A program made the translations under genes and the position numbers. DNA of 64,000 nucleotides from Dictyostelium discoideum (Eukaryota), in assembly GCA_000004695.1 (NCBI GenBank), contig CM000151.3, forward strand, positions 8,224,001-8,288,000, read 5' to 3'. Positions within the stretch are counted from its first letter, which is position 1, and every line of letters begins with the position of its first letter. This document shows positions 491 to 46,154 of this stretch, in pieces. The notes beneath the pieces are model-generated. The model saw nothing but the letters and a program-made list of their open reading frames with translations, did no database searches and was not told the DNA's origin.

Positions 491-549
<59 letters not shown>

Positions 550-9232: not shown

Positions 9233-9288
9233 TAATAGTAATAGTAATAGTAATAGTAATAGTAATAGTAATAGTAATAGTAATAATC
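9233..9288. repeat. (agtaat)n hexanucleotide microsatellite, ~9 units
   Basis: Seen directly ('atgggtaatagtaatagtaat...'). Confidence 0.85.
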
Positions 9289-9950: not shown

Positions 9951-10080
9951 ATTGAAAATTAAAATTAATGGCAAAAAAAAAAAAAAAAATTAAAAATTTT
10001 TTTTTTTTTTTTTTTTTTTTAACTACAAAGTTACATAATTATTAATAATAATTTAATCAAAAAAAAAAAAAAAACAAAAA

Positions 10081-10560
10081 ATGACAGAAAAGACAGAAAT
10101 ATTATTTTGGAAAGTTTTTAAAAATGATTTTATATTTAAAGAGATATTTAATCAAATTCACAACAATCAATGGATTGAATATGATAACCCAAATAAATAT
10201 AGTGTTTACAATAGATGTAAATTTAAATATATCCACTCATTGAAAGTAATGATAGAAAATGAACTACTCCCATTAATTAAAGATAAAATCAAACATGGTG
10301 ATCACATAGAAATAGATCGTGATTCAATAGAAATTCTTTTCAAAATTATCAAAAACAAATAATAATAAAAATAAATATAAAGATGAAGATTATTTAGAAA
10401 TTATTGAATTATTAATTAAACATAGAAGAGATGAATTTGAAATTACTGATTTAATAAATATAGCAACAAATAAAAATTCACCAGATGTTATTAGATTATT
10501 AGTTAATGAACCATATTCAGTTATAATTTATCCAACAGCATTTTATTTTATCATTAAATC
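10081..10560 (+). pseudogene. Truncated 5' fragment (~160 codons) of the tandem gene family with a frameshift after codon 93
   Basis: ORF 10081-10362 is '[40 protein letters not shown]...'. The homology continues in another frame at 10370-10560 ('[28 protein letters not shown]...[16 protein letters not shown]') and then stops abruptly. No middle or 3' part follows. Confidence 0.75.
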
Positions 10561-11036
10561 CAAAAAAAAAGAAATCAATTTTAAAATAAATTGTTTTTTT
10601 TTTTTTTATTAAACACTCAATTAAAAACTATCCAAATGTTATAAATAAAAATTTTTACGTTATAATCTAATTCTTCAATAACACCTCTAAACTTTTCGCT
10701 TCTATATTGCGCAATTTTTCGAGTAAAACAAGGGAATTATTATGAAAAGTTGATGTAATTTTCAGTAAAAAAAATAATACGTCATCACTTTTTTTTTTTT
10801 AATTTTTTTTTTTTTTTTTTTTTTTTAACTTTTTCTTTTTTATAAATTCTTTTTTTTTATTTTACAAATCAGTTTTTATAATTATTATACATTTGTACAT
10901 GTTTTTTTTTACAAATTTATAACTTTTAACATACATTTATATTATCTTTTTTTTTTTTTTTTTTTTTTTTTCATAACCATCATTATAATTATAATCAGCG
11001 TTTGTTGGTAGCAAAATTAAAAAAAAAACAAAAAAG

Positions 11037-14000: not shown

Positions 14001-14765
14001 AATACATTTCCAATTTTCTCTGAGGAAGAAAAGAAACATTCACAATATTTAGAATGTAAATTCATCCTTGAAAATCATTTTGAAAAAGTAAAGAATATTT
14101 CAAAATTAAAATTAGAATGGCGTGAAAGAAGAGATTTACAATTCCCATTGGTTTTATTAAATGCTTTTGTTTTTTTCCTTTGTAATCAATTCAATATCTC
14201 AACATATAATAAATTCATTCAAAATGAAGATTTAGAAATTAGAAAACAAGCAATTAAAGAAACAATTAAAACATTAATGGGGGTGCACGATGAAGATGAA
14301 AATGAAACATATAATTTAAATGAGAATTTTGTATCGGTAATAAAAGAAGAAAATCATAAAGTTTTACTCATTAAATCAATTATTGAGCAATCAGATACTC
14401 AACTATACTTTAAATCAGCTTTGGATCAAGTTTTATTGGAAATAATAAAGAAAAGAAAAACTGATGAAATTAATTCTCCATTGATTGAATATTGTGGAAA
14501 TTCATTCTCACAAGCTTTTTTTAATGGTGATATTAAAACTTGTAATCTCATTCTCAAATACTATCCAAATCAATTTAAAATCAATAAAGATTCAATCACT
14601 GAAGCTTTACAATTGCAAAATATTCATATTATTAAATATTATTACAAAGTTGAAAATTGTAAAAATTTAATTAATAATTTTAAAAATGATAATAATTTAT
14701 TAAAACATTTAAAAAATGAATTATCAAAACATCCAATTTATAAATATCATTTAACTTGGTTATAA
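11037..14765 (+). CDS. Tandem-family paralog B (1242 aa)
   Basis: Continuous ORF from ATG 11037 '[29 protein letters not shown]' to '...[12 protein letters not shown]'. Collinear with the other paralogs. It has a T-rich tract '[19 protein letters not shown]'. Confidence 0.7.
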   Translation: [1242 protein letters not shown]

Positions 14766-15429: not shown

Positions 15430-15758
15430 ATGACGGAAGAGATAGAAATATTATTTTGGAAAGTTTTTAAAAATAAATTTATATTCAACGAGATACTCAA
15501 TCAAGTTCACAACAATCGATGGATTGAATATGATGAACCATATAATTATAATGTTTACAATAGATGTAAATTTAAATATACATACTCTTTACAAATAATG
15601 ATAAGAAATGGTCTACTCCCTTTAATTAAAGATAAAATCAAACATGGTGATCATATAGAAATAGATCATAATTCAATAAAAATTCTTTTTTTAAAATTAT
15701 CAAAAACACAACCAATACAACCATATAATCAAAAAGAAATAACTCTTTTTAATATATC

Positions 15759-15818
<60 letters not shown>

Positions 15819-18168
15819 TAAAGATGAAGATTATTTAGAAATTATTGAATTATTTATGAAACATAGAAGAGATCAATTTGAAATTACTGATTTAATAAAG
15901 ATGGCAGTAATTACAAATTCTCCAGATGTTATTAGATTATTAGTTAATGAACCATATTCAGTTATAATTTATCCAACAGCATTTAAATTTGCAATTATAA
16001 AATCAAATTTAGAAACAATTAAAGAACTAATAAATTTAGAATCAATAAATTTTAAAAATTATGGTATTAAATTAATCAGTGAAAAATTTAAAAGAAAATC
16101 ATTATCATTAGCAGCACACAGAAAAACTCTTAAAACTTCAATCACTGAATACATTTTTAATAATCCATCATTATATTCAATACCACCACCATTATCATTA
16201 ATAAATAATCAAAAACAACAAACACAATCAAAAAATAAAAGATTAAAACTATCTGAAATTTTACTTTCAAATTTTAATAACAAAAACGATAATACTACTA
16301 GTGAAGAAGATGAAAATGATGGTGTAGAAGATGAAGATGTTCAAGAAAATGAAGACGATGGTGCCGAAGATGAAGGTGATGAAGATGAAGGTGAAGATGA
16401 TGGTGATGAAGATGATGAAGAAGAAGATGATGATGATGAAGATGAAGATGAAGATGATGATGATGATGATGATGATGATGAAGATGAAGATGATGAAGAA
16501 GATGAAGATGATGAAGAAGAAGATGATGATGAAGATGAAGAAGATGAAGAAGGTCATGACAAAAAAATAAAGTATGAATATATTAAATTTGAAGAATTTA
16601 TAAAATTAAAATCAAGCATTTTATTAAAATCATTTATGGAATTAGATATAGTAAAAGGAGAGTTTAAAAATAATAATGTGAATTCATTTCTCAAAATGTA
16701 TCATCCATATGAAAGATTAAAAGTTAATATTCAAATTATACTAAAGTATGGAACTCCATCATTAGATACAAAAGAAACAAAAGAGATTTTAGATAAAATA
16801 GATAATATTGATCAAAAAGATTCAAATCATTTATTAAAATTACAAGAATTTGCAGCATTACATTTCCCAAATCAAAAAAACTTTTATTTTTATTATTCAA
16901 AGAAGTATGGTGGAAAAATTAAACAACTTGGTAAAGTACCACCAAAAACTCCTCCTCAAGGCTCAGGTTCTGGAATTCTACAATACCATCATTTTTACAA
17001 AAATGAAAGTAGTTTTAATAATCAAGATGAAAGTGAACAAGATGAAGAAAAAGAAGAAGAAGTTGATGTTGGTATTCAAGAGGAATTCGAAATATATTCA
17101 GATTTGGAAATTGAAAATGAAGTTGAAGAAGAAGTAAACGTTAATAAACAACGAGAGTTTTTTAATAATTTTAATAAATTTAGAAAAGCAACAGTTTATA
17201 ATTTATCAGAAAGATATTCATCTGTAACTTCAATTTATTTAAATGCAATGAAAGAAGGAGATATTGATACAATGGAAAGATTAGATAAAAGTTGGAATCC
17301 AGTAATTAGATTAGATGTTTCAAGATTTCATTATTTCCAATTACCAAAAGAAAAAGAAGTTTTAATGAAAGTTTGGGATTATTTAAATGAACACTCTTTT
17401 AAACAGATTGGTAATAATTATGAAATTCTCATGGAATTCTTCTCAAGTGTAACAGATGTAATATCACCATTAGATTTGAAAATTAGTAATCTTGAAGATT
17501 TCATTATGAAGAGATTAGGTTTAATATTATTTAATACATTAATTATAAATAATTTAAATGTATTTCAATTATTATTAAATAGTTTTGACAACTTCAATTT
17601 TTTAAGTGAATTAGTAGTGGAAGTGAACAATCTTTTAAATAAAGAAAAGATTTTATTTGGTAGTGGTGGTAAAATCATGCAAATTGATAATAAATATATC
17701 AATCAATTAATCAAATCAATTGAAATGGCCGTGGAAAAGTATAATAAATTCATTTCTGAACCAATAGAGAATGGAGTAGAATCATTTAGCATCATTTTAA
17801 ATCATTTATACGATCAATTAATTAGAATTAAAGGTATATCAGTCGATCAATTAGATTATATTAGATCAATTATTCCTGAACAATTATTAGCATTCAAATG
17901 TGAACTCTATCGTACCTTTTTCTATCTCAATATCAGATCTCGAAAATTAACAAAATACATACTCACTAGGCCTAGAATTAGTCTGTATACTGAAGGCACT
18001 CCAAATCATTACGCAAATCATTCTGGTCTCTACAATATCCATTCAAATCTAGGACCTTCTGCATTAGATTTAAGAAAATATTTAAAATTAGATATATTCA
18101 CATATGATTATATTTTAGGTAGAGAGAATTCAAGTAGTAGTGGTAGTGGTGCTGATGACAATAATAAT

Positions 18169-18200
<32 letters not shown>

Positions 18201-19617
18201 CAGGAAGTTTATAAATCAATTCGATACAATATTAAAAGAATTAATTAAACAATTATCATTTGATATTTGTACAAACGTTAGTAACAGAGATAGTATTGTT
18301 GATGGTAAAGATTTCTTTAATTATTCATTAAATGCAGATTTAAGATTTAGTTTAGATATTGGTAGAAAAGATTTATTTTGGGAATTATTAGATTGGATTG
18401 AACAATATATGATTAAAAATGAAAATTTAATGAAGTATCAAGTTTATCAATTCAATTCACCATATGAATCATTATTACCAACTGGTGCAATATTTTTAAA
18501 TGTAAAAATAATAAAATTACCATCACCAAAAACAAAAACAACAAAAACAATTGAAAGTAGAATATTAAAAATTGATAATTTTGAAAAACCAATACCAAAT
18601 GAATCATCAGTTAAAATTGGTTGGAATACAGATAAATTAATTAAACCATTCAAACCAATTTCAAAACTTATAAATTCATTTAAATTCCAACAGGATGTCA
18701 TAGAATCAATTTGTAAAGTAATGAATGTAAATGAAATTCAAAGATTTATACAACACAATTTTTTTGTATCAAATTTCCAACTTTTAATATACACATATGC
18801 AGCATATAATAATAGAGATGATATAATGTCATTCCTATTAAATAATTATAATATCAAATTCAATGCATTTCCAACTTTCTCTGAAGTAAATAAGAATTAT
18901 TCACAATATTTAGAATGTAAATTCATCTATGAAAATCATTTTGAAAAAGTAAAGAATATTTCAAAATTAAAATTAGATTGGCTTGAAAAAAGATATTTTG
19001 AATTTCCATTGGTTTTATTAAATTCTTTTGTTGTATACCTTTGTGATCAAGATAATATCTCAGACTATAATCAATTCATTCAAAATAATAGTTTACAAAT
19101 TAGAAATAAAGTAATGAAAAAAACAATTATTATATTAATGGAGATACTTTATAATGATGAAGATGAAGATTATAATTTAGATAAGAGTTTTGCATCGTTA
19201 ATAAAATATGAAAATCATAAAGTTTCACTCATTAAATCAATTATTGAACAATCAGATACTCAATTATACTTTAAATCAGCTTTGGTTCAATCTTTATTAG
19301 AATTAAAAGAGAGAAGAAAAATTAGAACTCGATCCATTGATTATGATGAAAATCCATTCATACATGCTTTTATTAATGGTGATATTAAAACTTGTAATCT
19401 CATTCTTAAATATTATCCAAATCAATTCAAAATCACTAAAAATTTAATTAGTGATACTTTACGAATGAAAAATATTCATATTATTAAATATTATTATAAA
19501 GTTGGAAATTGTAAAAATTTAATTAATAATTTTAAAAATGATAATAATTTATTAAAACATTTAAAAAAATTATTATCAAAACATCCAATTTATAAATATC
19601 ATTTAACTTGGTTATAA
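15430..19617 (+). CDS. Tandem-family paralog C (1395 aa) carrying a ~100-residue pure D/E acidic expansion
   Basis: Continuous ORF. 16290-16560 encodes an almost uninterrupted Asp/Glu tract ('EEDENDGVEDEDVQENEDDGAEDEGDEDEGEDDGDEDDEEEDDDDEDEDEDDDDDDDDDEDEDDEEDEDDEEEDDDEDEEDEEGHD') at the position where other paralogs have only a few acidic residues. The termini are as in the family. Confidence 0.7.
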
Positions 19618-19810: not shown

Positions 19811-20666
19811 CAACTTGTAAATTAATTTACATCTATTGTAAACATTATATTTATTTGGAAACACTCACTCTTTACAAATAATGATAAAAAATGATCTACT
19901 CCCATTAATTAAAGATAAAATCAAACATAATGATCACATAGAAATTGATCATTTTTCCATTAAAGATCTTTTTTTAAAATTATCAAAAAAACAACCACCA
20001 CAAGAAGAAACTTTAATAGAAAATAATAATAATATTAATAATAATAATAAAAATAAATATAAAGATGAAGACTATTTAGAAATTATTGAATTATTAATGA
20101 AATATAGAAGAGATGAATTTGAAATTACTGATTTAATTGTGATGGCTAAATTATAATTGAATATGGTTCATTAACTAATAATTATTAGTTAATGAACCAT
20201 ATTCAATTATAATTTATCCAACAACATTTGAATTTGCAATTAAATGTTTAAATTTAGAAACAATTAAAGAACTAGTAAATTTAGAATCAATAAATTTTAA
20301 AAATTATGGTATTAAATTAATTAGTGAAGAATTTAAAAGAAAATCAGCACGTAGAAAAACTCCTAAAACTACAATCGCTGAATACATTTTTAGTAATCCA
20401 TCATTATATTCAATACCACCATTGTCATTAATAAATAATCAAAAACAACAAGAGCCGTCAACAAATAAAAAACTAAAATTATCTGAATCGAATTTAAATA
20501 AAAAGAACAATATTAATAACAGTGATAATAGTGATAATAGTGACGAAGGAAGTGAAAATGATGAGGAAGATTATGAAAATGAAAATGATATTGATAGTGA
20601 TAATTGTGATAATAATGAAGGATGTGAAAATGATGAAGAAGATGAAGAAAACGAAGATATTGATAC

Positions 20667-20754
<88 letters not shown>

Positions 20755-21729
20755 AAACAACAACAAAAACAACAAATACAACTACTACAAGTAAAAAATG
20801 TTAATAAACGACGAGAATTTCTTAATGGTTTTGATATACCATTAACTTTTAATGATTCATCCAGTTCACTAAAAACCTTACTTTATTTAAGTGCAATGAG
20901 AGAAGGAGATGTTGATAAAATCAAAATGTATGATGGTGCTTTTAGTGCAAGATTTAGATTGGATGTTTCAGGATTTCATTATTTCAAACTACCAAAAGAA
21001 AAAGAAGTTTTAATGAAAGTTTGGAATTATTTTAATGAACACTCTTTTAAACAGATTGGTAATAATTATGAAATTCTCATAAAATTCTTCTCAAGTGTAA
21101 CAGATGTAATACCACCTTTAGATTTGAAAATTAGTAAACTTCAAGATTTCATGATGGGGGGATTAAGTTTAATGTTATTTAAATCATTACTTAAAAATAA
21201 TTTAAATGTATTTCAATTATTATTTAATAGTTTTGATAACTTTAATTTTGGAACTGGAGAACTAGGTCAAATGAGAGATTTTATTAATAGAGAAAATGTT
21301 TTATGTTGTAAACTGAAGGAACTTGATAATAACTATATCAACAAATCAATCAAATCAATTGAAATGGTTGTGGAAAAGTTTAAAAAACCCATTGATAAAC
21401 CAATAAAGGATCGAGTGGAATCATATAGCATCATTATAAATTATTTATATGATCAGTTAATTAGATTTAAAGGTATATCAGTCGATCAATTAGAATATAT
21501 TAGATCAATTATTCCTCAACAATTATTTACATTTAAATTGGATGTCTATCGTATCTTTTTCCATCTCAATATCAGATCTCCAAAATTATCAAAATACATA
21601 CTCTCTGGGCCTAAAATTAAAATGTTTAATCAAAGACGTCGAAATGATTCTGCTTTCTACAATTATTTAAAACAATATTTAAATTTATATTTATTCACAT
21701 ATGATTATATTTTGGGTAGAGATAATGCA

Positions 21730-21764
<35 letters not shown>

Positions 21765-22908
21765 GTACATAACTCAATTCGATACAATATTAAAAGAATT
21801 AATTAAACAATTATCACATGATATTTGTACAAACCTTAGTAATAGAGATGAGATTGTTGATGGTAAAGATAGAGATTTCTTTAAGCATTCATTAAATGCA
21901 GATTTAAAATTCAGTTTAGATATTGGTAGAAAAGATTTATTTTGGGAATTATTAGATTGGATTGAACAATATATGAATAAAAATGAAATTTTAATGAAGC
22001 ATCAAGTTTATCAATTCAATTCACCATATGAATCATTATTACCAACTGGCATAATATTTTCAAATTTAAAAATAATAGAATTACCACCACCAAAAACAAC
22101 AGTAACAACAGTAACGACATCAACAATTGAAAGTAGAATTTTAAAAATTGATAATTTTGAAAAACCAATACCAAATGAATCATCAGTTAAAATTAATTGG
22201 AATTCAGATAAATTAATTGAACCATTTAAACCAATTTCAAAACCTATAAATTCATTTAACTTCCAACAAGATGTCATACAGTCAATTTGTAGAGTAATGA
22301 ATGTAAATGAAATTCAAAGATTTATACAACACAATTTCTTTGTATCAAATTTCCACATTTTAATTTATTCAAGTGCATTATATAATAATAGAGATGATAT
22401 AATGTCATTCCTATTAAATAATTATAATATCAAACTCAATGGATTTCCAACTTTCTCCAAGGCAGACAATCAACATTCACAATATTTAGAATGTAAATCC
22501 ATCTTTGAAAATCATTTTGAAAAAGTAAAGAATATTTCAAAATTAAAATTAGAATGGTGTGAAAGTAGAGATTTACAATTCCCATTGGTTTTATTAAATG
22601 CTTTTGTTGTATACCTTTGTAACGATCGTAATTTCTCAACCTATAGTGAATTCATTCAAAATGATAATTTAGAAATTAGAAATAAAGCAATTAAAGAAAT
22701 AATTAAAATATTAAAGTATCACTATGAAGATGATGAGGAAGAATATAATTTAGATGAGAATTTTGCATCTATAATAAAAAATCAAAATCATAAAGTTTCA
22801 ATCATTCAACCAATTATTGAACAACCAGATACTCAATTATACTTTAAATCAGTTTTAGATCATGTTACATTAAAAATAAAAAAGGAAAGAAAAATCTGTG
22901 GCGCTTAA
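19811..22908 (+). pseudogene. Rearranged/decayed tandem-family copy: 5' end inverted, internal palindromic duplication, frameshift, and loss of the conserved C-terminal ~70 codons
   Basis: 19811-19858 is the reverse complement of family codons ('ccaaataaatataatgtttacaatagatgtaaatt'), followed directly by forward-oriented sequence. ORF 19881-20156 ends in a stop. A perfect 38-nt palindrome lies at 20163-20200 ('atggttcattaactaataattattagttaatgaaccat'). The 828-aa ORF 20422-22908 ends 'KERKICGA*' without the '[11 protein letters not shown]' tail. Remnants of that tail ('gaaaatcatttaactttgttat') lie in the spacer at ~22975 and ~23125. Confidence 0.7.
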
Positions 22909-23272
22909 AAAAATAAAAAAAAAAAAATAAAAAAAAATAAAAAAAAAAATTAACGGAAAGATATTTTTTTATTATGAAAATCATTTAACTTTGTTATATA
23001 AAAATAAATCTTTTTTTTTTTTTAATGATTTGTTTAATTGTTTCTAATATTTACACAGTGGTCATATGGAAATAAAAAAATAAAAAAATAAAAAAATAAA
23101 TTATCAAAATAATCAATTTATGAAAATCATTTAACTTTGTTATAAATAATAAAAAATTATAAAAAAAAAAAATAAAAATAAAAATAAAAAAATAACCTAC
23201 ACTTATTATTAGAAATGATCAATTTTTTTGAAGTCCAAAAAAAGTTTTAAAAACACTGTGTTTTTATCGAAA

Positions 23273-23306
<34 letters not shown>

Positions 23307-23428
23307 TTATTTTTTTTTTTCACTTTTTTTTTTTTTCACTTTTTTTTTTCACTTTTTTTTTTTTTTCATACTTTTTTTTTTTTCGTTCATTCAAAACGGT
23401 GGTTAAGAAAAAACAAAAAATAATAATT

Positions 23429-23747
23429 ATGGAAATTCTAGAAATATTGTTTTGGAAAGTTTTTAAAAATAAATTTATATTCAATGAGATATTAAATCAA
23501 ATTCACAACAATGAATGGGTTGAATATGATGAACCAAATAAATATAATGTTTACAATAGATGTAAATTTGGAAACACTCACTCATTGGAAATAATGATCA
23601 AAAATGATCTACTCCCATTAATTAAAGATAAAGTCAAACATAATGATCATATAAAAATTGATCATTTTTCCATTAAAAATCTTTTTTTAAAATTATCAAA
23701 AAAACAACCACAACAACAAAATAATCAAGAACAAACCATAAACAATG

Positions 23748-23826
<79 letters not shown>

Positions 23827-26800
23827 TAAATATAAAGATGAAGATTATTTAGAAATTATTGAATTATTTATGAAATATAGAAGAGATGAATTTGAAATTA
23901 CTGATTTAATAATGATGGCAGTAAAAACTTATTCTCCAGATATTATTAGATTATTAGTTAATGAACCATATTCAGTTATAATTTATCCAACAACATTTGA
24001 ATTTGCAATTATAAATTCAAATTTAGCAACAATTAAAGAACTAATAAATTTAGAACCAACAAATTTTAAAAACTATGGTATTAAATTAATTAGTGAAGAA
24101 TTTAAAAGAAAATCATTATCATTGGCAGCACATAGAAAAACTCTTAAAACTACAATCACTGAATACATTTTTAGTAATCTATCATTATATTCAGTACCAC
24201 CACCATTATCATTATTAAATAATCAAATACAAGAACAACCATCAACAAATAAAAGATTAAAACTATCTGAAACTTCAAAACCAAATAATAATAATGACGA
24301 TAATAATAATGATAATGATAATAATGATAATGAGGAAATTAAATATGAATATATTAAATTTGAAGAATTTATAAAATTAAAATCAAGCAATTTATTAAAA
24401 TCATTTATGGAATTGGATATAGTAAAAGGTAGTTTTAAAAAGAATTTTAATTCATTTATTAAAATGTATCACCCATATGAGAGATTAAAAGTTGATATTA
24501 GAATTATATTAAAATATGGAGATATAATGTTACAACAAGTAAGTGGAGAAATTTTAGATAAAATGAATAAAATCGATACAAATAAACAAAAAGGTTTTAA
24601 TAAATTAAAAGAATTAAGAAAATTAACAGTAATAGAATTTCCAAAACAAAATAACTTTTATTACTATTATTGGAAAGCATATGGTGAAAAAATTAAAGGA
24701 CTTGATAGAATACCACCAAAATCAATTTCAAACCCAGATGAACAAGATTTTTTTCAATACCTTGATAGTAATGAAGAAAAACAATATGTTGAAGAAGATT
24801 ATTTTTTTGGAAATGGAAATGATGAAGAAGAAAACACTTCATTGGAGAATTATAATAATAATAATATTAATAATAATAATATTAATAATGAAGAAGAAGA
24901 AGAAGATGATGATGATGATGATGATGATGAAGAAGATGAAGAAGATGAAGATGAAGAGAATGAAGACGATGGAAATGAAGACGATGGAAATGATCAAGAA
25001 CTACCTGAAATGGATTCTGGATCTGATATAGATATTGAAAATGAAGTTGATGAAGAAACTATTAATGATTTAGAAAATAAAAAGAGATTTATAAATGGTT
25101 TTAATAAATTTAGAAAAGCATCAGTTTATGATATTTCTAATAGATATTCAGATTTAGATAATTCATATTTAAAAGCAATTAAAGAATGTAATATTGAAAT
25201 GTTAGAAGAGGTGAATAAAAATAATCCAAATTTTACATTGAATGTTTCCAAATTTCATTATTTCCAATTACCAACAGAATCTGAAGATGTGTTAAAGCTT
25301 TGGAAATTCTTTGTTGGACATGGATTTAAACAATTTCAATATAGTCAAGAAATATTCCTAGAATTCGTTTCAAGTGTAACCGATGTATTATCACCATCAA
25401 AATTGGAGATAGTAACACTTTGTGCTCCTCTTTTGAGAAGAATAGAATTTTTATTATTTGATACACTATTTAGAAAGAAATTTAACGCATTTGAAATATT
25501 ATTTAAAAGATTCTCTTTTTTAGAACCATTTTCAAAAGATGAATATACTGAACTTTTAAATCAGGAAAAGGTTATATTCAACATCAATGGTAAATTAGTG
25601 CAATTTGATAACAGCCATCTCAATCAAACAATCAGATTAATTTCATTAGTAGTGGCAAAGTTTCACCTACAAGCTTTAAACGCACCTCAGCATCCTAGTA
25701 TTAATAATAGTACTAAACCAGCACAACAATCATATAGTATAATTATAAACTATTTATATGATCAGTTACTTAGAATTAAAGGTTTAACAATTAATCACTT
25801 AGAACTTGTTAGATCAATTATTCCTGAACATTTCTTATCAGATGCACACAGTCAAGTGTTTCGTGTCTTTTTCTATCTTAATATCAGATCTTCAAAATTT
25901 TCAAAATACATAATTGAAAGACCTGGTGTTGATACTTTTATGTATATTTCAGAAGATTATGCAGAAAACTATAATTGTAGTGAACCACCAACTACAAATG
26001 TTGATGATATTGGTTTTGATATTAGAAAATATTTAAATTTAGATATCTTTACATATGATTTTATATTAGGTAGAGAATCAATTCAATCATATGGTACTGA
26101 TACTGTTGATAGTGTTGATAAGTTTAATAATAATAATAATAATAAAAAAAATTATAAAAAGTATATAACTCAATTCGATACAATATTAAAAGAATTAATG
26201 AAACAATTATCACATGACATTTGTACAAATATTGATAGAGATAGAATCACTGGAGGTCAAGATTTCTTTAATTATTCATTAAGTGCAGATTTAAGATTTA
26301 GTTTAGCCATTGGTAGAAAAGATATATTTTGGGAATTATTAGATTGGATTCAACAATATATTACTTTAAATGAAAATTTAATTAAATATCAAGTTTATCA
26401 ATTTAATTCACCATATGAATCATTATTACCAACTAGTACAATATATCCAAATGTAAAAATAATTAAAAAAGAATTGCCACCATCAACAACAAAAACAAAA
26501 ACAACATCAACAACAACAGCAGCAACAACAACAACAACTGAAAGTAGAATATTAAAAATTGATAATTTTGAAAATCCAATACCAAATGAATCATCAGTTA
26601 AAATTAATTGGAATGAAAATAAATTAGATGAATCATTTAAACCAATTTCAAAACTTATAAATTCATTTAAATTTTTTGAAGATGTATTGGATTCAATTTG
26701 TAAAGTAATGAATGTAAATGAAATTCAAAGATTTATTCAATATAATTTCTTTGAAACAAGTTTCCAATTTGCAATTTACTCTTATTTAGTATTTATGAAT

Positions 26801-27616
26801 AGAGATGATGTACTTTCATTCCTATTGAATAATTATAATATAGAGTTTGACATATTCCCATTCTTTCTACCAGAAAGAAGATATTCTCAATATTTAGAAT
26901 GTAAATTCATATTTGAAAATCATTTCGAAAGAGTAAAGAATATTTCAAATTTAAATATAGAATGGTGTGAAAGAAGAGATTTAGATTTCCCATCCACTGT
27001 ATTGAATGGGTTTGTTAAATTTCTTTGTAAAGAAAAGAATATCGCAATCTATAATCAGTTTATTCAAGAAAATGGTAATTTAGAAATTAGAAATAAAATT
27101 ATTAAAGAAACTATTGAAGTAATGAAAATAGAACTAGATGCAAACATTGATGAAGATGAAGATGATGATACTGAGAATTTCGCATTCATATTAAGAAATC
27201 AAAAACATAAAGTTTTACTCATTCAATCAATTATTGAACAACCAGATACTCAATTATACTTTAAATCAGCTTTAGATCAAGTTTTATTAGAATTAAAAGA
27301 GAAAAGAAAAACTGATAAAATTAATTCTCCATTCATTGAAAATCTTAAAAATCCATTCTTACAATCTTTTATTTATGGTGATATTAAAACTTGTGATATC
27401 ATTCTCAAATATTATCCAAATCAATTTAAAATCACTAAAGATTCAATCACTAAAGCATTAAAACTCGATAGAATCCATATTATTAAATATTATTATAAAG
27501 TTGATAATTGTAAAAATTTAATTAATAATTTTAAAAATGATAATAATTTATTAAAACATTTAAAAAATGAATTATCAAAACATCCAATTTATAAATATCA
27601 TTTAACTTGGTTATAA
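23429..27616 (+). CDS. Tandem-family paralog D (1395 aa)
   Basis: The ORF track begins at a GTG at 23399; the first ATG is at 23429 ('[30 protein letters not shown]'). Near-identical to paralog E. Contains a long poly-N tract and an acidic tract (24895-24990). Confidence 0.7.
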
Positions 27617-28135
27617 AACAAAATAATAAAAAAAAAAATTTAAATCACAGTGCTTCGAAATTTTTTCGGTTTGCGCTTAAAAAAAAAAAAAAAAAAATAA
27701 ATAAATAAATAAATAAATAAAATAAAATAAATAAAATAAAATAAAAATTAACAGAAAGATATTTTTTTATAATGAAAATCATTTAACTTTGTTATAAATA
27801 AAAATAAATCTTTTTTTTTTTTAATGATTTGTTTAATTGTTTCTAATATTTACAGTGGTCATATGGAAATAAAAAAAAAAAAAAAAAAAAAAAATAATAA
27901 AAAAACATATTAATTTATTTCTTTATTCTTTTTTTTTTAGAAAACTTTTGTCCACGTCATCTTACTGGTGAATTTGAAATGATGTGATCAATTTTTTTCA
28001 AGTCCAAAAATAGTTTTAAAAAAAAAAAATAATTTTTTTTTTAATTTTTTTAATTTTTTTTTTCATCAACCAATACTTTTTTTTTTTTTTCATTCATTCA
28101 AAACAGTGGTTAAGAAAAAACAAAAAATAATAATT

Positions 28136-28450
28136 ATGGAAATTCCAGAAATATTATTTTGGAAAGTTTTTAAAAATAAATTCATATTCAATGAGATATT
28201 AAATCAAATTCACAACAATGAATGGGTTGAATATGATGATCCAAATAAATATAGTGTTTACAATAGATGTAAATTTGGAAACACTCACTCATTGGAAATA
28301 ATGATAAAAAATGATCTACTCCCATTAATTAAAGATAAAATCAAAAATAATCATCATATAAAAATTGATCATTTTTCCATTAAAAATCTTTTTTTAAAAT
28401 TATCAAAAAAACAACCACAACAACAAAATATTCAAGAAGAACAAACCATA

Positions 28451-28512
<62 letters not shown>

Positions 28513-30782
28513 TAAATATAAAGATGAAGATTATTTAGAAATTATTGAATTATTTATGAAATATAGAAGAGATGAATTTGAAATTACTGATTTAATAAAG
28601 ATGGCAGTAAAAACTTATTCACCAGATGTTATTAGATTATTAGTTAATGAACCATATTCAGTTATGATTTATCCAACAACATTTGAATTTGCAATTATAA
28701 ATTCAAATTTAGCAACAATTAAAGAACTAATAAATTTAGAACCAACAAATTTTAAAAACTATGGTATTAAATTAATTAGTGAAGAATTTAAAAGAAAATC
28801 ATTATCATTAGCAGCACATAGAAAAACTCTTAAAACCACAATCACTGAATACATTTTTAGTAATCCATCATTATATTCAATACCACCACCATTATCATTA
28901 ACAAATAATCAAACACAAGAACAACCATCAACAAATAAAAGATTAAGACTATCTGAAACTTTAGAATCAAATAACAATAGTAATAATAATAATAATAATG
29001 ATGATGATAATAATGATAATAATAATGATAATGAAGAAATTAAATATGAATATATTAGATTTGAAGAATTTATAAAATTAAAATCAAGCAATTTATTAAA
29101 ATCATTCATGAAATTGGATATAGTAAAAGGTAGTTTTAAAAAGAATTTTAATTCATTTATTAAAATGTATCATCCATATGAGAGATTAAAAGTTGATATT
29201 AGAATTATATTAAAATATGGAGATATAATGTTACAACAAGTAAGTGGAGAAATTTTAGATAAAATGAATAAAATCGATACAAATAAACAAAAAGGTTTTA
29301 ATAAATTAAAAGAATTAAGAAAATTAACAGTAATAGAATTTCCAAAACAAAATAACTTTTATTACTATTATTGGAAAGCATATGGTGAAAAAATTAAAGG
29401 ACTTGATAGAATACCACCAAAATCAATTTCAAACCCAGATGAACAAGATTTTTTTCAATACCTTGATAGTAATGAAGAAAAACAATATGTTGAAGAAGAT
29501 TATTTTTTTGGAAATGGAAATGATGAAGAAGAAAACACTTCATTAGAGAATAATAATAATATTAATATTAATAATAATAATGAAGAGGAAGAAGAAGATG
29601 ATGATGAAGAAGAAGAAGAAGGTGATGAAGATGAGGATGATGGAAATGATCAAGAACTACCTGAAATGGATTCTGGATCTGATATAGATATTGAAAATGA
29701 AGTTGATGAAGAAACTATTAATGATTTAGAAAATAAAAAGAGATTTATAAATGGTTTTAATAAATTTAGAAAAGCATCAGTTTATGATATTTCTAATAGA
29801 TATTCAGATTTAGATAATTCATATTTAAAAGCAATTAAAGAATGTAATATTGAAATGTTAGAAGAGGTGAATAAAAATAATCCAAATTTTACATTGAATG
29901 TTTCCAAATTTCATTATTTCCAATTACCAACAGAATCTGAAGATGTGTTAAAGCTTTGGAAATTCTTTGTTGGACATGGATTTAAACAATTTCAATATAG
30001 TCAAGAAATATTCCTAGAATTCGTTTCAAGTGTAACCGATGTATTATCACCATCAAAATTGGAGATAGTAACACTTTGTACTCCTCTTTTGAGAAAAATA
30101 GAATTTTTATTATTTGATACACTATTTAGAAAGAAATTTAACGCATTTGAAATATTATTTAAAAGATTCTCTTTTTTAGAACCATTTTCAAAAGATCAAT
30201 ATACTGAACTTTTAAATCAGGAAAAGGTTATATTCAACATCAATGGTAAATTAGTGCAATTTGATAACAGCCATCTCAATCAAACAATCAGATTAATTTC
30301 ATTAGTAGTGGCAAGGTTTCACCTACATACTTTAAACGCACCTCAGCATCCTAGTAGTATTAATAATAGTACTAAACCAGCACAACAATCATATAGTATA
30401 ATTATAAACTATTTATATGATCAGTTACTTAGAATTAAAGGTTTAACAATTAATCACTTAGAACTTGTTAGATCAATTATTCCTGAACATTTTTTATCAG
30501 ATGCACACAGTCAAGTGTTTCGTGTCTTTTTCTATCTTAATATCAGATCTTCAAAATTTTCAAAATACATAATTGAAAGACCTGGTGTTGATACTTTTAT
30601 GTATATTTCAGAAGATTATGCAGAAAACTATAATTGTAGTGAACCACCAACTACAAATGTTGATGATATTGGTTTTGATATTAGAAAATATTTAAACTTA
30701 GATATCTTTACATATGATTTTATATTAGGTAGAGAATCAATTCAATCACATGGTATTAATACTGCTGATAGTGCTGATAAGT

Positions 30783-30837
<55 letters not shown>

Positions 30838-31193
30838 GTACAAAACTCAATTCGATACAATATTAAAAGAATTAATGAAACAATTATCACTTGATATTTG
30901 TACAAATATTGATAGAGATAGAATTACTGGAGGTCAAGATTTCTTTAATCATTCATTAAGTGCAGATTTAAAATTCAGTTTAGATATTCGTAGAAAAGAT
31001 ATATTTTGGGAATTATTAGATTGGATTCAACAATATATGATTAAAAATGAAAATTTAATTAAATATCTAGTTTATCAATTTAATTCACCATATGAATCAT
31101 TATTACCAACTAGTACAATATATCCAAATGTAAAAATAATTAAAAAAGAATTGCCACCATCAACAACAAAAACAAAAACAACAACATCAACAT

Positions 31194-31224
<31 letters not shown>

Positions 31225-32299
31225 TGAAAGTAGAATATTAAAAATTGATAATTTTGAAAATCCAATACCAAATGAATCATCAGTTAAAATTAATTGGAAT
31301 GAAAATAAATTAGATGAATCATTTAAACCAATTTCAAAACTTATAAATTCATTTAAATTTTTTGAAGATGTATTGGATTCAATTTGTATAGTAATGAATG
31401 TAAATGAAATTCAGAGATTTATTCAATATAATTTCTTTGAAACAAATTTCCAATTTGCAATTTACTCTTATTTAGTATCTATAAATAGAGATGATGTACT
31501 TTCATTCCTATTGAATAATTATAATATAGAGTTTGACGTATTCCCATTCTTTCAACCTGAAAGAAGATATTCTCAATATTTAGAATGTAAATTCGTATTT
31601 GAAAATCATTTCGAAAGAGTAAAGAATATTTCAAATTTAAATATAGAATGGTGTGAAAGAAGAGATTTAGATTTCCCATCCACTGTATTGAATGGGTTTG
31701 TTAAATTTCTTTGTAAAGAAAAGAATATCGCAATCTATAATCAGTTTATTCAAGAAAATGGTAATTTAGAAATTAGAAATAAAATTTTTAAAGAAACAAT
31801 TGAAGTAATGAAAAAAGAATTAGATGAAAACATTGAAGATGAAGATGATGATACTGAGAATTTCGCATTCATATTAAGAAATCAAAAACATAAAGTTTTA
31901 CTCATTCAATCAATTATTGAACAACCAGATACTCAATTATACTTTAAATCAGCTTTAGATCAAGTTTTATTAGAATTAAAAGAGAAAAGAAAAACTGATA
32001 AAATTAATTCTCCATTAATTGAAAATCTTAAAAATCCATTCTTACAATCTTTTATTTATGGTGATATTAAAATTTGTGATATCATTCTCAAATATTATCC
32101 AAATCAATTTAAAATCACTAAAGATTCAATCACTAAAGCATTAAAATTCGATAGAATCCATATTATTAAATATTATTATAAAGTTGATAATTGTAAAAAT
32201 TTAATTAATAATTTTAAAAATGATAATAATTTATTGGAACATTTAAAAAATGAATTATCAAAACATCCAATTTATAAATATCATTTAACTTGGTTATAA
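28136..32299 (+). CDS. Tandem-family paralog E (1387 aa), recent duplicate of D
   Basis: The first ATG is at 28136 (the ORF track starts at a GTG at 28106). The protein aligns with D essentially residue-for-residue. Differences are concentrated in the lengths of poly-N, acidic and poly-T tracts. The upstream and downstream spacers also match those of D. Confidence 0.7.
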
Positions 32300-32785
32300 A
32301 AAAAAAAAAAAAACTAAAAAAAAAGACAAACTATAATAATAAATAGATAAAAACTTTAAAAAAATTAATTGTCAAAATAATCAGTTATAAAAATCATTTA
32401 ACTTAAAGTTATGAATGCCAAAAAAACAAATAAAAAAAAAAAAAATAAAAAAAAAAAAAATAAAAAAATAGTAGTAATAAAAATAAAAATAAAATTTTTT
32501 ATTATTTAAATTTATAATAATTTATTCATCAAAATTACATTTTTTTTTTTTTTTTTTTAGAATCAATATTAATTATATTTTTAGAATTTTATTTCAACCA
32601 AACGGATACACTTGGGACCTTTGTTTTACTTTTATACTTTTTTTTTTTTTTTTTTTGGCCTAAATTTTTATTATTCAAAATTGTGTTCAAATATGTTTTT
32701 TTTTTTTTTGATATTTTTAATAATAATAATAAGAAAAAAAAAAAAACATTATCATTTTAATTATAATAATAATAATTTATAACAG

Positions 32786-32845
<60 letters not shown>

Positions 32846-33034: not shown

Positions 33035-33322
33035 ATGGAAATACATGAAATATTATTTTGGAAAGTTTTTAAAAATAAATTTATATTAAATGAAATATTT
33101 TATCAAATTCACAGCAATCAATGGGTAGAATATGATGAATCAAATAAATATAATGTTACCAATAGATGTAAATTTGGAAACACTCACTTCTTACAAATAA
33201 TGATAAAAAACGATCTACTCTCATTAATTAAAGATAAAATCAAACATGGTGATCATATAGAAATTACTCCCTCTTCAATAAAAGAACTTTTCTCAAAATT
33301 ATCAAAAATAAAACAACCATCA

Positions 33323-33390
<68 letters not shown>

Positions 33391-33874
33391 TAAAAATAAA
33401 TATAAAGATGAAGATTATTTAGAAATTATTGAATTATTAATGAAACATAGAAGAGATGAATTTGAAATTTATGATTTAATAAAGATAGCAGTAGCTACTT
33501 TTTCACCAGATGTTATTAGATTATTAGTTAATGAACCATATTCAGTTATAATTTATCCAACAACATTTGAATTTGCAATTATAAATTCAAATTTAGAAAC
33601 AATTAAAGAATTAGTAAATTTAGAACCAATAAATTTTAAAAATTATGGTATTAAATTAATAACAGAACAATTCAAAAGAAAATCATTATCATTAGCAACC
33701 CAAAGAACAACTCTTAAAACTACAATCACTGAATACATTTTTAGTAATCCATCACTACACTCAATACCACCACCATTATCACTAATAATAAATAATCAAC
33801 AAGACCCATCAACAAATAAAAGATTAAAAACATCTGAAACTTTACTTTCAAATTCAAATAATAACAATAACAAC

Positions 33875-33906
<32 letters not shown>

Positions 33907-34477
33907 TAATAATAATAAAAATAATAATGAAGAAATAAAATATGAATATATTAAATTTTATGACTTTTTAAAATTAAAATCAAGTAATTTATTAAAATCA
34001 TTTATGGAATTAGATATAGTTTTAAAAGGATTAAAAAAGAAATTAAATTCATTTATTAAAATGTATCATCCATATGAAAGATTACAAATTGATATTAGAA
34101 TTATACTAAAGTATGGAGATACAATTTCAGATATAAAAAAAAGAGAAGAGATTTTAGAAGAAATGAATCAAATTGATACAAATAAAAAAACAGGTTTTAA
34201 TAAATTAAAACAGTTAAGAAAATTAGTAGCAATAGAATTCCCAAATCAAAAAAACTTTTATTACTATTATTGGAAAGCATATGGTGATAAAATTAAAGAA
34301 CTTGGTAAAGTACCACCAAAAATTCCACCTCAAAACACAACTGATGAAATTTTTGAATACCTTTATTCTGAAGAATATTTAAATCAATTTAATGATGATG
34401 ATTATGGTGATGATGAAGAACCACAAAATAATAATAACAACAATAACAATAACAATAATAATAACAATATTATTATT

Positions 34478-34562
<85 letters not shown>

Positions 34563-35766
34563 TAAATAATAATGAGATAGAGAATGAAGGAGGGAATATT
34601 CAAGTTGAAAATGAAGGAAATGTTGAAGATATGGATGGTGATGAATTATTAGAGCAATTAGAGACAGTAGTGAATGATGGTGAATCAGATTCTGATAGGG
34701 AATTTAATAATGAAGTTGATGAAGAAAAGGGAGATACAATTACTATTAAAAGAGAATATATTAATAATTTTAATAAATATAAAAAAGAAACAGTTTATAA
34801 TATATCCAATAGATATTCAAATTCTACCAATTTATTTTTGGATTCAATTAGGGAATGTGATATTGAAACCTTAGAAAAGATAGATCAACTCCATAATTTA
34901 GAGTTTAAATTGGATGTTTCAAGATTTCATTATTTTCAATTACCAAAAGAAAGAAAAGATATAATGAAAGTTTGGGAATACTTTAATCATCATGGATTTA
35001 AACAATTTGGGTCAAGTCAAAAAGCTTTTATTGAATTTGTTTCAAGTGTGGCAGATGTGATATCACCACTTTCAGAATTGAAAATAACAAATACTTGTAA
35101 ATCAATCTCTAGAAACTATGATTTTATATTATATAGAACATTATTTAGAAAGAAATTTAATGTTTTCGAATTACTTTTAAGACATTCCACTCTTTCTTGG
35201 TTTCCATTTTTAGAGAATGATCAATTCTTGGAGATTTTAAATCAAGAAAAGGTGATATTCAATCATCAATGTGAAGTGATTCAATTTGATAATAAATATC
35301 TTGATCAAATAATCAGATTAATTGAATTCAGTGTTGGGAAATTTCAATTGGTTGAAAAAGCTAGAGATCATTTATTGGCACAAGGATTTCAAGTTGGTAT
35401 TAGAATTGTAAATTATTTATATGATGAATTAATTAGAATTAAAGGTGTGACAATAGATCAATTAGAATATGTTAGATCAATTATTCCAAAGGAAGCATTA
35501 AATACACCATATGAAATCTATCGAGTTTTCTTTTATCTTAATATCAGATCTCCAAAATTAACAAGATACATAATGTATAGACCTGCAACCATTGAATTCA
35601 TATCAACCTCTGAATTATTTATTAGTCATTATAATTGTAGTGATCCAACAACAATTGATGAAATTGGTTTTGATTTTAAAAAATATTTAAATTTAGATAT
35701 ATTCACATATGATTATATATTAGGTAGAGAGAATATTAGAAATGTTTCTATTAATAGTAGTAGTAT

Positions 35767-35816
<50 letters not shown>

Positions 35817-37279
35817 ATAAAAGATTTATAACTCAATTCGATACAATATTAAAAGAATTAATGAAACAATTATCACATGATATTTGTACAAACATTAGTA
35901 ATAGAGATAATATTGTTCATGGTCAAGATTTCTTTAATCACTCATTAAATGCAGATTTAAGATTTAGTTTAGCTATTGGTAGAAAGGATTTATTTTGGGA
36001 ATTATTAGATTGGATTCAACAATATATAAATAAAAATGAAAATTTAATGAAGTATCAAGTTTATCAATTTAATTCACCATATGAATCATTATTACCAACT
36101 GGTAGTTTATTTTCAAATGTAAAAACAATTATAAAAGAATTACCAACGACAACAACAACAACAACAAGAACAAGAACGACAACAACATCAACAACAACTG
36201 AAACTAAAATATTAAAAATTGATAATTTTGAAAGACCAATACCGAATGAATCAACAATTCAAATTGATTGGAATGAAAATAAATTAATTGGACCATTTAA
36301 ACCAATTCGTAAACTTATAAATTCATTTAAATATATTGATATTGTTATGAATTCAATTTGTAAATTAATGGATGTAAATGAATTTCAAAGATTTATTCAA
36401 TATAATTTCTTTGAATCAGATTTTCAATTTACAATTTATTCATATGCAGTATATAATAATAGAGATGATTTAATGTCATTCCTATTAAATAATTATATTA
36501 TTGAAATTGATAGATTCCCATTCTTTCATCCAGAAAGAGGCTATTCACAATATTTAGAATGTAAATTCATCTTTGAAAATCATTTCGAAAGAGTAAAGAA
36601 TCTTTCAAATTTAACTTTGGAATGGTGTGAAAGAAGAGATTTAGATTTCTCATTCTCTCTATTGAATGATTTTATTAAATATCTTTGTAAAGCAAAGCAT
36701 ATAACAACCTATAATCAGTTTATTCAAGATGATAATTTACAAATTAGAAATAAAATTATTAAAGAAATAATTGAAGAATTAAAGAAACAATATGACTCGA
36801 TCTTAGATGTAGTTGAAGATGAAGATATTAAAAAAGAGAATATCGCATGTCTATTAAAAAATCAAAAACATAAAGTTTCACTCATTCAATCAATTATTGA
36901 ACAACCAGATACTCAATTATACTTTAAATCAACTTTAGAAAAAATTATATTAGAATTAAAAGAGAAAAGAAAAATTAATGAAATTAATTCTCCATTCATT
37001 AAAGATGATCAAAATCCATTCTTGGATTCTTTTATTCATGGTGATATTAAAACTTGTAATATCATTCTCAAATATTATCCAAATCAATTTAAATTCACTA
37101 CAAGTTCAATCACTAAGGCATTAGGATTAGATAAAATTCATATTATTAAATATTTTTATAAAGTTGATAATTGTAAAAATTTAATTAATAATTTTAAAAA
37201 TGATAATAATTTATTAAAACATTTAAAAAATGAATTATTAAAACATCCAGTTTATAAATATCATTTAACTTGGTTATAA
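33035..37279 (+). CDS. Tandem-family paralog F (1414 aa), most divergent intact copy; contains a ~55-residue uninterrupted poly-Asn run and a poly-Ser run
   Basis: The first ATG is at 33035 (the ORF track starts at a TTG at 33029). Poly-N lies at 34430-34570. '(S)n' lies at 35755-35815, at the position where paralog A has its S/G-rich tract. The C-terminus is '...[13 protein letters not shown]'. Confidence 0.7.
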
Positions 37280-38202: not shown

Positions 38203-38301
38203 ATGTTATTAAAAAGAGTAGATACTTTGACAATAACATTAATACTGATAATTCTTTTTTTTATTTATCAACCTTTATTTTTTGGTCATGTTAAAAATAG
38301 T

Positions 38302-38348
<47 letters not shown>

Positions 38349-39749
38349 TAATAATAATAATAAAAATAATAATTATTATTATTATAATTATAATATAAAA
38401 AATAATAATAAAAATAATAAAAATAAAAATAATAATAAAAATAAAAATAGTAATAATAATAATAATAATAATAATGACGGTAATGAAGCAGGATTACCCA
38501 ATTTAGAATTGAATAGTATAATTAATGAAGAAATAATTTATGATGATTTTAAATCAATACCAATAGAATTGAATGAAAATGAAAAGATAGTAAAGGATAT
38601 TGTAATGTCTAGAGAGTGTGAATATGTCGATTTAGTATATACATGGGTAAATGGTTCAGACCCAAAACATTTTGCAACAAAACAAAAATTAAAAAATAAA
38701 AGTCAAATAGTACCCGCTTCATCTTTTAGAGATATTGGTACTTTAAAATATTCTTTAAGAAGTGTTAGACAATATGCTCCTTGGATAAAGAATATTTATA
38801 TAATTACAGCTGACCAAAAACCTGATTGGTTCGACTCTGAAAATCCTGATAATGTTAGATTTATTTCTCATAGGGATTATTTTCACAATAAGTAAATATT
38901 TACTTCTTTTTTAAAAATAACCTCTTCTTAAATCATAATATATGTTAATTTTTTTTTTTTTTTTTTTTTTTCTTTCTTTTTTTTAGGTCAGATTTACCAA
39001 CATTTAATTCAAATGCGATTGAAGCAAATTTTTGGAATTTACCAGTACAAGTTTCAAATTGTTTTTTATATTTAAATGATGATATTTATTTTAGTAGACC
39101 AGTAAATCAGAGTGATTATTTTGATGAAAATTTTAATCAAGTTGTTTTTACAACACAAGATGAATTGTGGACAAAATCAGAAAATCTTAACAAATTTGAT
39201 CAATATAGTAAAGCGATACTATTCACAAATAGAGCATTAGCATCAGTTTGGCAAGAGATTGTGATAAGGAAATTCCCAGCTCATGGAGTTCAGATTTTTA
39301 ATAGAAAGATATGGTATAAAATTCAAGAAGAATTTGGTACAGCTTTAGAGATAACATCATCAAATAAATTTAGAAGTATTTTAGATTTTCAAATTGGGCA
39401 TTTATATAATCAAGTTGCCATGAAACATTCAAATTGTACAATCAAGAATGACTCTGATGTATTGTATATTTTATTAAATGTAGACAAATACGATCAACAG
39501 TTATCATTGGTGAATTCATCTAGAAATCAAATGAATACAGTATGTTTAAATGATGGTTTAGATTTTTTTAATAATGATCTTCAAAAGAAATTTGATAATA
39601 CATTTAATTATTTATTTCCAAATCCATCACCTTTTGAAATCAAACCATTACCATTTCAAAAAAATTTCATTTTTGCTATTATTTTTGTATTATTACTATT
39701 ATTAATTTTAAAAGTTTTAATAACAAAAAAGAAAATATTTATTTATTAA
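38203..39749 (+). CDS. Stealth-family protein (GlcNAc-1-phosphotransferase-like), type II membrane topology; two exons: 38203..38891 and 38987..39749 (intron 38892..38986, gtaaat...ag)
   Basis: Exon 1 begins with the N-terminal TM 'LTITLILIILFFIYQPLFF', followed by a poly-N tract. Stealth motifs: CR1 'DLVYTWVNGSDP' and CR2 'LKYSLRSVRQYAPWIKNIYIITADQKPDWFDSENPDNVRFISHRDYF'. These resemble human GNPTAB 'DVVYTWVNGTD' and '[46 protein letters not shown]'. The two ORFs 38203-38895 and 39165-39749 are in the same frame once the 95-nt intron is removed. The join continues 'SDLPTFNSNAIE...LYLNDDIYF' (CR3-like). There is a C-terminal hydrophobic segment. Confidence 0.65.

Positions 39750-46113: not shown

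Positions 46114-46154
<41 letters not shown>

Follow-up and report, generated by a model that had tools for sequence, protein, structure and literature searches.

Unequal crossing-over, or non-allelic homologous recombination, is the textbook source of young tandem duplicates. In Dictyostelium discoideum, the tgrB/tgrC cluster has been described as a tandem family that evolves by birth and death (preprint 10.1101/2025.10.22.684067). A low base-substitution rate combined with a high slippage rate has been reported for this species (PMC7466956), and gene duplications arise spontaneously at a low rate as well (1.18e-8 per gene per generation; PMC9849192). In this study, we analysed a stretch of 64,000 nucleotides (nt) of D. 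discoideum DNA (assembly GCA_000004695.1, contig CM000151.3, positions 8,224,001 to 8,288,000, forward strand), called the window below, whose G+C content is ~20% and whose own numbering is used throughout. Our subject is a pair of neighbouring genes in it, D and E, for which an earlier sequence-only reading had proposed a very recent segmental duplication of a gene together with its spacer. We found that the two genes and parts of their upstream spacers are homologous and that the pair is the youngest event in its array. Probably, D and E arose when a ~4.7-4.8 kb unit, consisting of the upstream spacer and the gene, was duplicated once in tandem by unequal crossing-over.

The sequence-only reading had taken the pair in isolation. 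The pair is real, but it forms only one step in a head-to-tail array, which contains at least nine copies or fragments of one Dictyostelium-only family and continues past the window edge. It includes genes A to F, which have long open reading frames (ORFs), and the decayed members A0, B' and C' (Table 1).

Homology of genes D and E

D and E are both intact, and the period from the start codon of D to that of E is 4,707 nt. The blastn comparison aligned 23372-27638 with 28079-32323 at 95.1% identity over 4,314 columns. A global alignment of the leader and the coding sequence (CDS) gave 100 substitutions, 63 of them transitions, in 4,194 ungapped columns (97.6% identity, ~2.4% divergence) and 13 insertions or deletions (indels) totalling 128 nt. 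The two genes are thus nearly identical and collinear from end to end, as had been proposed.

It had also been proposed that the differences cluster in coding microsatellites. This was correct for the indels: all 12 coding indels were multiples of three, most of them lay inside arrays called by Tandem Repeats Finder (TRF), and the differences named for the poly-N, the acidic tract and the poly-T were all real. The arrays detected by TRF in each copy, three of (AAT)n and one each of (GAA/GAT)n, (TAA)n and (CAA)n, had unequal numbers of units in D and E; every one of the six coding trinucleotide arrays thus had a different length in the two genes, without a break in the frame. The substitutions did not follow this pattern. 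They were present in every 300-nt bin of the gene, and a single bin, 26072-26371, held 23 of them compared with ~7 expected (Poisson P ~2e-6).

In the hot spot inside this bin, nine states were derived in D and two in E, including a complex change of four positions within 6 nt. At the nine D-unique sites, E agreed with A, B and C, and mostly with F, while matches to F were met at one or two sites only. Conversion from F was considered as the cause of the hot spot and was rejected, since the states there are unique to D. When all sites that could be polarised by the agreement of A, B, C and F were counted, 15 changes were derived in D and 21 in E, which indicates that neither copy is simply decaying.

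The leaders next to the start codons differed in one base, as the sequence-only reading implied, and this leader was not shared by the upstream regions of A, B, C and F. For the spacers, the claimed match was true of three collinear blocks, namely the block at the upstream end, a second upstream block and the leader. It was not true of the segments 23092-23215 and 27887-27984, which are unrelated, of the T-rich tracts, which differ in length (132 versus 70 nt), or of 27639-27672, which is unpaired. The first block runs collinearly through 22899-23091 and 27673-27886, and blastn aligned 22911-23109 with 27711-27903 at 91% identity (E 1e-72). Its unique core of ~125 nt carried 2 substitutions (~1.6%) and 3 small indels between the copies.

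In such DNA, the spacer similarity might be only A/T-rich low-complexity matching, with the coding regions alone duplicated. Most spacer-to-spacer blastn matches in the array were indeed poly-A, poly-T or (AAAT)n, and an unmasked all-versus-all spacer search was so dominated by poly-A and poly-T matches that it was unusable. However, the ~190-nt collinear block with its complex core, the 38-nt block and the 43-nt leader are all common to both copies. A diagnostic 32-nt motif of the spacer occurred at two sites only in the 64 kb (23024 and 27823), and a 25-nt motif of the second upstream block likewise at two (23217 and 27986), with 0 expected by chance in each case. We regard the low-complexity explanation as refuted, and the duplication claim survived this check.

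The unique spacer sequences of the D and E units matched nothing in the rest of the window, and nothing in the other loci that were fetched. As these blocks and the leader are common to the C'-D and D-E spacers only, the proposal of a ~4.7 kb unit including upstream DNA was borne out. The divergence of the spacer core is similar to that of the leader and CDS, which suggests one event over gene and spacer. A search of the duplicated unit with Rfam and a transfer RNA scan found nothing.

Origin of the pair

The high identity between D and E stops 22-24 nt past the stop codons, at 27638 and 32323, and does not reach 32420 as had been stated. Beyond this point, the flank of E is unrelated to that of D, as would be expected from a crossover at the 3' end. 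Seven copies share 88-92% identity over the final 300 nt of the gene (repeat family D11), and this conserved end would offer a substrate for misaligned exchange. We propose that unequal crossing-over took place inside the head-to-tail array, with one breakpoint at the 3' end, or in the immediate 3' flank, of the gene that lay before the D/E ancestor and is now C', and the other at the corresponding place in the D/E ancestor. Such an exchange would have inserted the old C'-to-gene spacer, copied in full, between D and E. The D-E spacer begins with a short private stretch and continues as a copy of the C'-D spacer, and the E-F spacer is different.

After the exchange, substitutions would have accumulated in both copies, the six trinucleotide arrays would have slipped in frame, and one segment of ~100 nt would have been replaced in one of the two spacers. 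A further deletion may have taken the last 92 codons of C' together with the partner of 27639-27672. This is suggested by the similarity between the spacers, which resumes exactly at the truncated end of C' ('GCGCTTAAAAAAA', 22899 versus 27673). According to the translations, C' is without its N-terminal start, ~300 central residues and the last 92 codons, and it has a frame change near 20160. It is absent from family D11, and GCA_054883475.1 annotates it as a 952-aa spliced gene model. The pair would then belong to an array under birth-and-death evolution, where a new copy may be kept, diverge or decay, with A0, B' and C' as decayed examples.

Degenerate copies of the last 22-50 nt of the genes (the ...YHLTWL-stop region) were observed in four array spacers. 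It suggests earlier events of a like kind, either misaligned exchanges or truncated copies. The relic at 23097-23146, in the C'-D spacer, matched the real 3' end of E and the relic in the E-F spacer at 81-85% by blastn.

Several points weigh against the unequal crossing-over proposed here. Inside the spacers, ~100-125 nt are unrelated, and the D flank at 27639-27672 has no partner in either neighbouring spacer, so that the junction between the copies is not clean and contains 34-72 unmatched bases. The unmatched junction bases and the unrelated segment mean that at least two further events must be assumed. Synonymous differences made up 28 of 99, which does not differ from a neutral expectation of 0.254 after adjustment for transition bias (P = 0.29), and thus gives no sign of selection on the protein sequence itself. 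No genome with a single D/E copy was seen, and the loci fetched from another strain, ACTFIR, end ~13 kb short of D/E. Gene conversion acts in the array and could mimic a duplication or reset its apparent age. Finally, the assemblies are probably Nanopore-based, which makes homopolymer lengths and the frameshifts of C' and A0 uncertain.

Gene conversion deserves particular attention. In its long-tract form, D and E would be older paralogs, and the sequence of one would have replaced that of the other between the upstream spacer and a point shortly after the stop codon; the 2.4% divergence would then date the conversion, not a duplication. Exchange between paralogs does occur in the array: the proportion of synonymous differences (pS) between D and F was 0.03 at residues 99-197 and 0.05 at residues 1244-1339, versus 0.4-0.62 in the centre. 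The high identity of D and E ends abruptly on both sides, with unrelated flanks at 27639-27672 and from 32324 onward; the unrelated spacer segments could be unconverted islands; and two adjacent 100-column windows (D residues 589-769) contained zero synonymous differences between D and E. On the other hand, the tract would need to span at least 4.7 kb including private non-coding DNA, while the patches in other pairs are a few hundred bases long, and neither the rest of the window nor the other fetched loci contain the spacer sequences common to the two units. The hot-spot differences are derived states unique to D that were not copied from another paralog; clustered differences carrying the states of a donor paralog were not found in 26090-26370. 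Patchiness of synonymous divergence was strong in the older pairs (D-F pS 0.03-0.62) and weak in D-E itself. On balance, we consider long-tract conversion unlikely as the origin of the pair.

Among the older paralogs (4651-37279), synonymous divergence was mosaic, at 0.03-0.10 in the same two segments (D residues 99-197 and 1244-1339) and 0.4-0.6 in the centre. This suggests interlocus conversion or a segment-specific homogenisation.

The same structure, with identical D and E products, was found in GCA_054883475.1. This bears on whether the pair is one gene that entered the assembly twice, by a wrong joining of long reads or as an uncollapsed variant. The source assemblies appear to be Nanopore-based and differ mainly in homopolymer lengths, and some of the frameshifts in A0 and C' could be Nanopore homopolymer errors. 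Nevertheless, 100 substitutions and 13 indels separate the two copies, one spacer segment has been replaced, and the 3' flanks are not the same. The agreement of the second record also argues against an artefact, although the strain behind this record may be the same one or a sister, so that the agreement is not fully independent. In addition, an uncollapsed variant is hard to reconcile with the haploid genome of D. discoideum. An assembly artefact is very improbable, and we retain one tandem duplication by unequal crossing-over as the probable origin of D and E.

Age and selection

Synonymous (dS) and nonsynonymous (dN) divergence were estimated by the Nei-Gojobori method on a codon alignment of the array members. 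The D-E pair gave a dS of 0.038 and a dN of 0.021 (dN/dS 0.57). For B-C, the values were 0.088 and 0.094, and all other pairs showed a dS of ~0.29-0.35 and a dN of ~0.22-0.26 (dN/dS 0.67-0.88). D-E had the lowest synonymous divergence in every 100-column window, which suggests one event, the youngest in the array. It agrees with the sequence-only reading that this is a segmental head-to-tail duplication of gene and spacer.

The same reading had called the duplication very recent, and this is not supported. The nucleotide diversity of D. discoideum genes was reported to have a mean of 0.003 and a median of 0.0014 (preprint 10.1101/2025.10.22.684067), and the dS of D-E is 13-27 times these values. 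Both copies carry derived changes, and the pair has accumulated 12 in-frame indels and a spacer replacement. Using the substitution rate of 2.47e-11 per site per generation (PMC7466956), our own arithmetic (dS/2mu) gave ~8e8 cell generations. The array locus may, however, evolve far more slowly or coalesce far more deeply than average. With a deeper coalescence at this locus, the D-E duplication could still postdate the split of haplotype classes.

Purifying selection on the D/E protein was considered from the dN/dS of 0.57. This view was tempered, as the synonymous share is near neutral once the transition bias is counted. In simulations with 99 random substitutions, a stop-free ORF was retained in 1.6% only. 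Taken together with the neutral-like synonymous share, it suggests that the frames have been kept open while amino acid replacement was nearly unconstrained, or that constraint and diversification are mixed.

The protein family

No Pfam model reached its threshold in D, E, C', F or A, and PDB sequence profiles found nothing for the D/E family. The AlphaFold models were of moderate quality, and that of the N-terminal 470 aa had a mean predicted local distance difference test score (pLDDT) of 63.5, rising to ~90 at residues 137-250. The C-terminal 873 aa were modelled as all-helical with a pLDDT of 60.2, and structure comparison of this part returned generic helical matches only. There was no convincing transmembrane segment in D and E (maximum 19-residue hydropathy 1.35-1.45), and no obvious N-terminal signal peptide was seen in the family proteins. 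From these results, the product may be a soluble helical-repeat binding protein that is helical and ankyrin-like in its N-terminal part and all-helical in the rest. The likeness to ankyrin-repeat proteins comes from sub-threshold Pfam Ank_2 matches in the D. firmibasis and D. dimigraforme relatives. In contrast, the Pfam Ank models gave no hit in D, E, C', F or A and stayed below the cut-off of 27.3 bits in the relatives P0014 and P0028 (19.7 and 17.4 bits), and the C-terminal 870 residues had no specific fold match. An I-TASSER note likens DDB_G0277585, the AX4 counterpart of gene A, to the IP3 receptor, which is also a helical-repeat protein (PMC8280847).

The family appears narrowly distributed. 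A profile of the C-terminal 865 positions matched 27 cluster representatives only, among 1.84 billion, and all named matches were hypothetical proteins of D. discoideum, 'cf. discoideum' or D. dimigraforme. Homology search also gave a single D. firmibasis relative (CM069768.1) of 33% identity. This relative adjoins a LARP1-like gene and had no tandem copies within 10 kb on either side. It suggests that the large array may be specific to the D. discoideum complex.

A search of a 5.8-billion-protein collection with D, with D without its low-complexity parts and with a C'+F chimera returned no proteins of the D/E/C/F type, not even the query, and exact look-up confirmed that C, D and E are absent from that collection. 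The longest homopolymer run was at most 9 residues in the family members that were returned, compared with 18-27 in C, D, E and F. It seems that proteins with long runs were left out of the collection, and many Dictyostelium proteins would then be hidden from such searches. The absence of AX4 orthologs in these searches is therefore not evidence of absence.

The array in other strains and its neighbourhood

Gene A is identical to AX4 DDB_G0277585 over 1,235 aa (100%), and gene B shares 98.7% identity and a 90% cluster with DDB_G0277653. More family members lie upstream of the window, among them an exact copy of DDB_G0277643 (100% identity). Given these two perfect matches, AX4 would be expected to have both D and E. 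The products of C, D and E are identical in GCA_054883475.1 (contig JBTAPE010000033.1, locus tags ACTFIT). Exact-product look-ups for these three and for a downstream 186-aa gene matched that assembly only; the product of F, which differs in one amino acid, was not found in this way. Over 24 kb, the window and GCA_054883475.1 differed by 2 single-nucleotide polymorphisms (SNPs), one of which alters the amino acid in F, and by 5 homopolymer or simple-repeat indels only, including a 42-nt change in the length of an A-run. These few differences suggest that the window stems from another assembly of that strain or from a sister isolate.

The array looks very different in the ACTFIR strain (GCA_054859385.1). 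Its two loci carry family genes of 1899, 1191, 1405, 771 and 1355 aa, and a DDE_1 transposase gene separates the 771-aa gene from the 1355-aa gene. The right end is syntenic with A0-A-B' (window 1-10374) at 84-94% identity, most of A is missing there, and the equivalent of A0 is an intact 1,355-aa gene. The loci reach the equivalent of window position 10374 only.

The likely orthologs DDB_G0277643 and ACTFIR_005890, and likewise DDB_G0277653 and ACTFIW_000910, are 86% identical at the protein level. Elsewhere in the family, likely orthologs were 86-97% identical between strains, far below the genome norm (diversity 0.0014-0.003). If these are true alleles, the array would be far more polymorphic than the genome average, although they may be paralogs instead. 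One could go further and suppose that the array is among the most polymorphic loci of the species, with haplotypes 6-16% apart under near-neutral or diversifying evolution and with gain, loss and decay of copies from strain to strain, that it is an intracellular conflict or recognition locus with tgr-like dynamics, and that the D/E duplication is specific to a haplotype class. We offer this only as a speculative and rather doubtful extension.

To the right of the array lie conserved single-copy neighbours, and a Tgr-family gene (Pfam Ig_TgrO1 and TIG domains, 792-aa ORF) was observed at 54055-56433 (+), ~17 kb downstream of the array.

Table 1. Positions of array members, homologous segments, repeats and neighbouring genes in the window
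Feature	Position	Strand	Remark
Gene D	23429-27616	+	intact 1,395-codon ORF; exact product annotated in GCA_054883475.1
Gene E	28136-32299	+	intact 1,387-codon ORF; exact product annotated in GCA_054883475.1
Spacer block, copy 1	22899-23091	+	unique core 22951-23075; gene 3'-end relic 22977-22998
Spacer block, copy 2	27673-27886	+	(AAAT)n expansion; relic 3' end 27775-27796
Second upstream block, copies 1/2	23216-23253 / 27985-28022	+	38 nt, 94.7% identity
ATG-proximal leader, copies 1/2	23386-23428 / 28093-28135	+	43 nt, one mismatch
C'-D spacer segment without D-E partner	23092-23215	+	~50-nt gene 3'-end relic 23097-23146 (motif at 23123) and A-rich repeats
Private D-E spacer segment	27887-27984	+	unrelated to C'-D spacer; unique in window; no match in other fetched loci
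D 3' flank	27617-27672	+	27617-27638 matches E flank; 27639-27672 unique in window
Last bases of D/E high identity	32300-32323	+	beyond, E-F spacer unrelated to D-E spacer except relic 3' end 32357-32412
Relic gene 3' ends in spacers	8564-8585, 22977-22998, 23097-23146, 27775-27796, 32357-32412		
Substitution hot spot in D	26090-26370	+	residues ~890-980, mostly D-specific derived changes
(AAT)n poly-N array	D 23744-23829 / E 28451-28515	+	28.7 versus 21.7 units; TRF
Coding trinucleotide array	D 24284-24331 / E 28970-29032	+	TRF, indel list
Coding trinucleotide array	D 24848-24889 / E 29549-29581	+	TRF, indel list
Coding trinucleotide array	D 24890-24986 / E 29582-29642	+	TRF, indel list
Coding trinucleotide array	D ~26125 / E 30784-30834	+	TRF, indel list
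Coding trinucleotide array	D 26484-26538 / E 31161-31224	+	TRF, indel list
A0	~1-2675		decayed member, split into short ORFs
Gene A	4651-8523	+	long ORF, array family
B'	~10027-10617		decayed member, 5' fragment only
Gene B	11037-14765	+	long ORF, array family
Gene C	15430-19617	+	long ORF, array family
C'	19851-22908	+	decayed paralog directly 5' of duplicated unit
Gene F	33035-37279	+	long ORF, array family
Differences from GCA_054883475.1	14875, 23293, 27679, 32714, 32786-32827, 35894, 37392		
Stealth CR1-CR4 protein gene	38203-39749	+	95-nt intron at 38892-38986
CNH/Vps39-type protein gene	41860-44784	-	
DUF202 protein gene	45607-46869	-	
Aspartyl protease gene	48981-49784	-	

Comparison with known systems

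Taken alone, the D/E pair is an ordinary, moderately young tandem duplicate in a lineage-specific array. Its use lies in the study of early duplicate divergence: it offers 100 diagnostic substitutions and private, predicted promoters that have already diverged in spacing, and the D-specific burst in one segment of ~90 residues adds to its value as a well-delimited example. The unequal T-tracts and the replaced spacer segment predict that the timing of transcription may differ between the copies. The organism has an extremely low mutation rate, and duplications were also measured to be rare (PMC7466956, PMC9849192). The whole array may merit more attention than the pair, being Dictyostelium-only and fast-evolving, with a dN/dS of 0.7-1.0 and intact and decayed copies side by side, and looking very different in another wild strain.

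When compared with textbook duplicates from unequal crossing-over, D and E are alike in lying head to tail on the same strand, and their homology takes in flanking DNA as well as the gene. At one end, this homology stops at a sequence that is conserved in the neighbouring paralogs too, and relics of earlier events are present. They are unlike them in the 34-72 unmatched junction bases and the internal replaced segment, for which the simple picture of two breakpoints needs later events. The six trinucleotide arrays, with their in-frame length changes, agree in every respect with the slippage-prone coding microsatellites of D. discoideum (PMC7466956).

A further comparison is with the tgrB/tgrC cluster. 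Unlike the tgr products, the proteins of this family are without an Ig or TIG domain in Pfam and without a convincing membrane anchor. The likeness lies in the organisation and the mode of evolution. Both loci are clusters of paralogs in which intact genes and pseudogenes are mixed, both show mosaics that suggest interlocus conversion, structural differences between strains (here between putative orthologs) and a dN/dS near 1 among paralogs, and a Tgr-type gene is found in the same window as the array.

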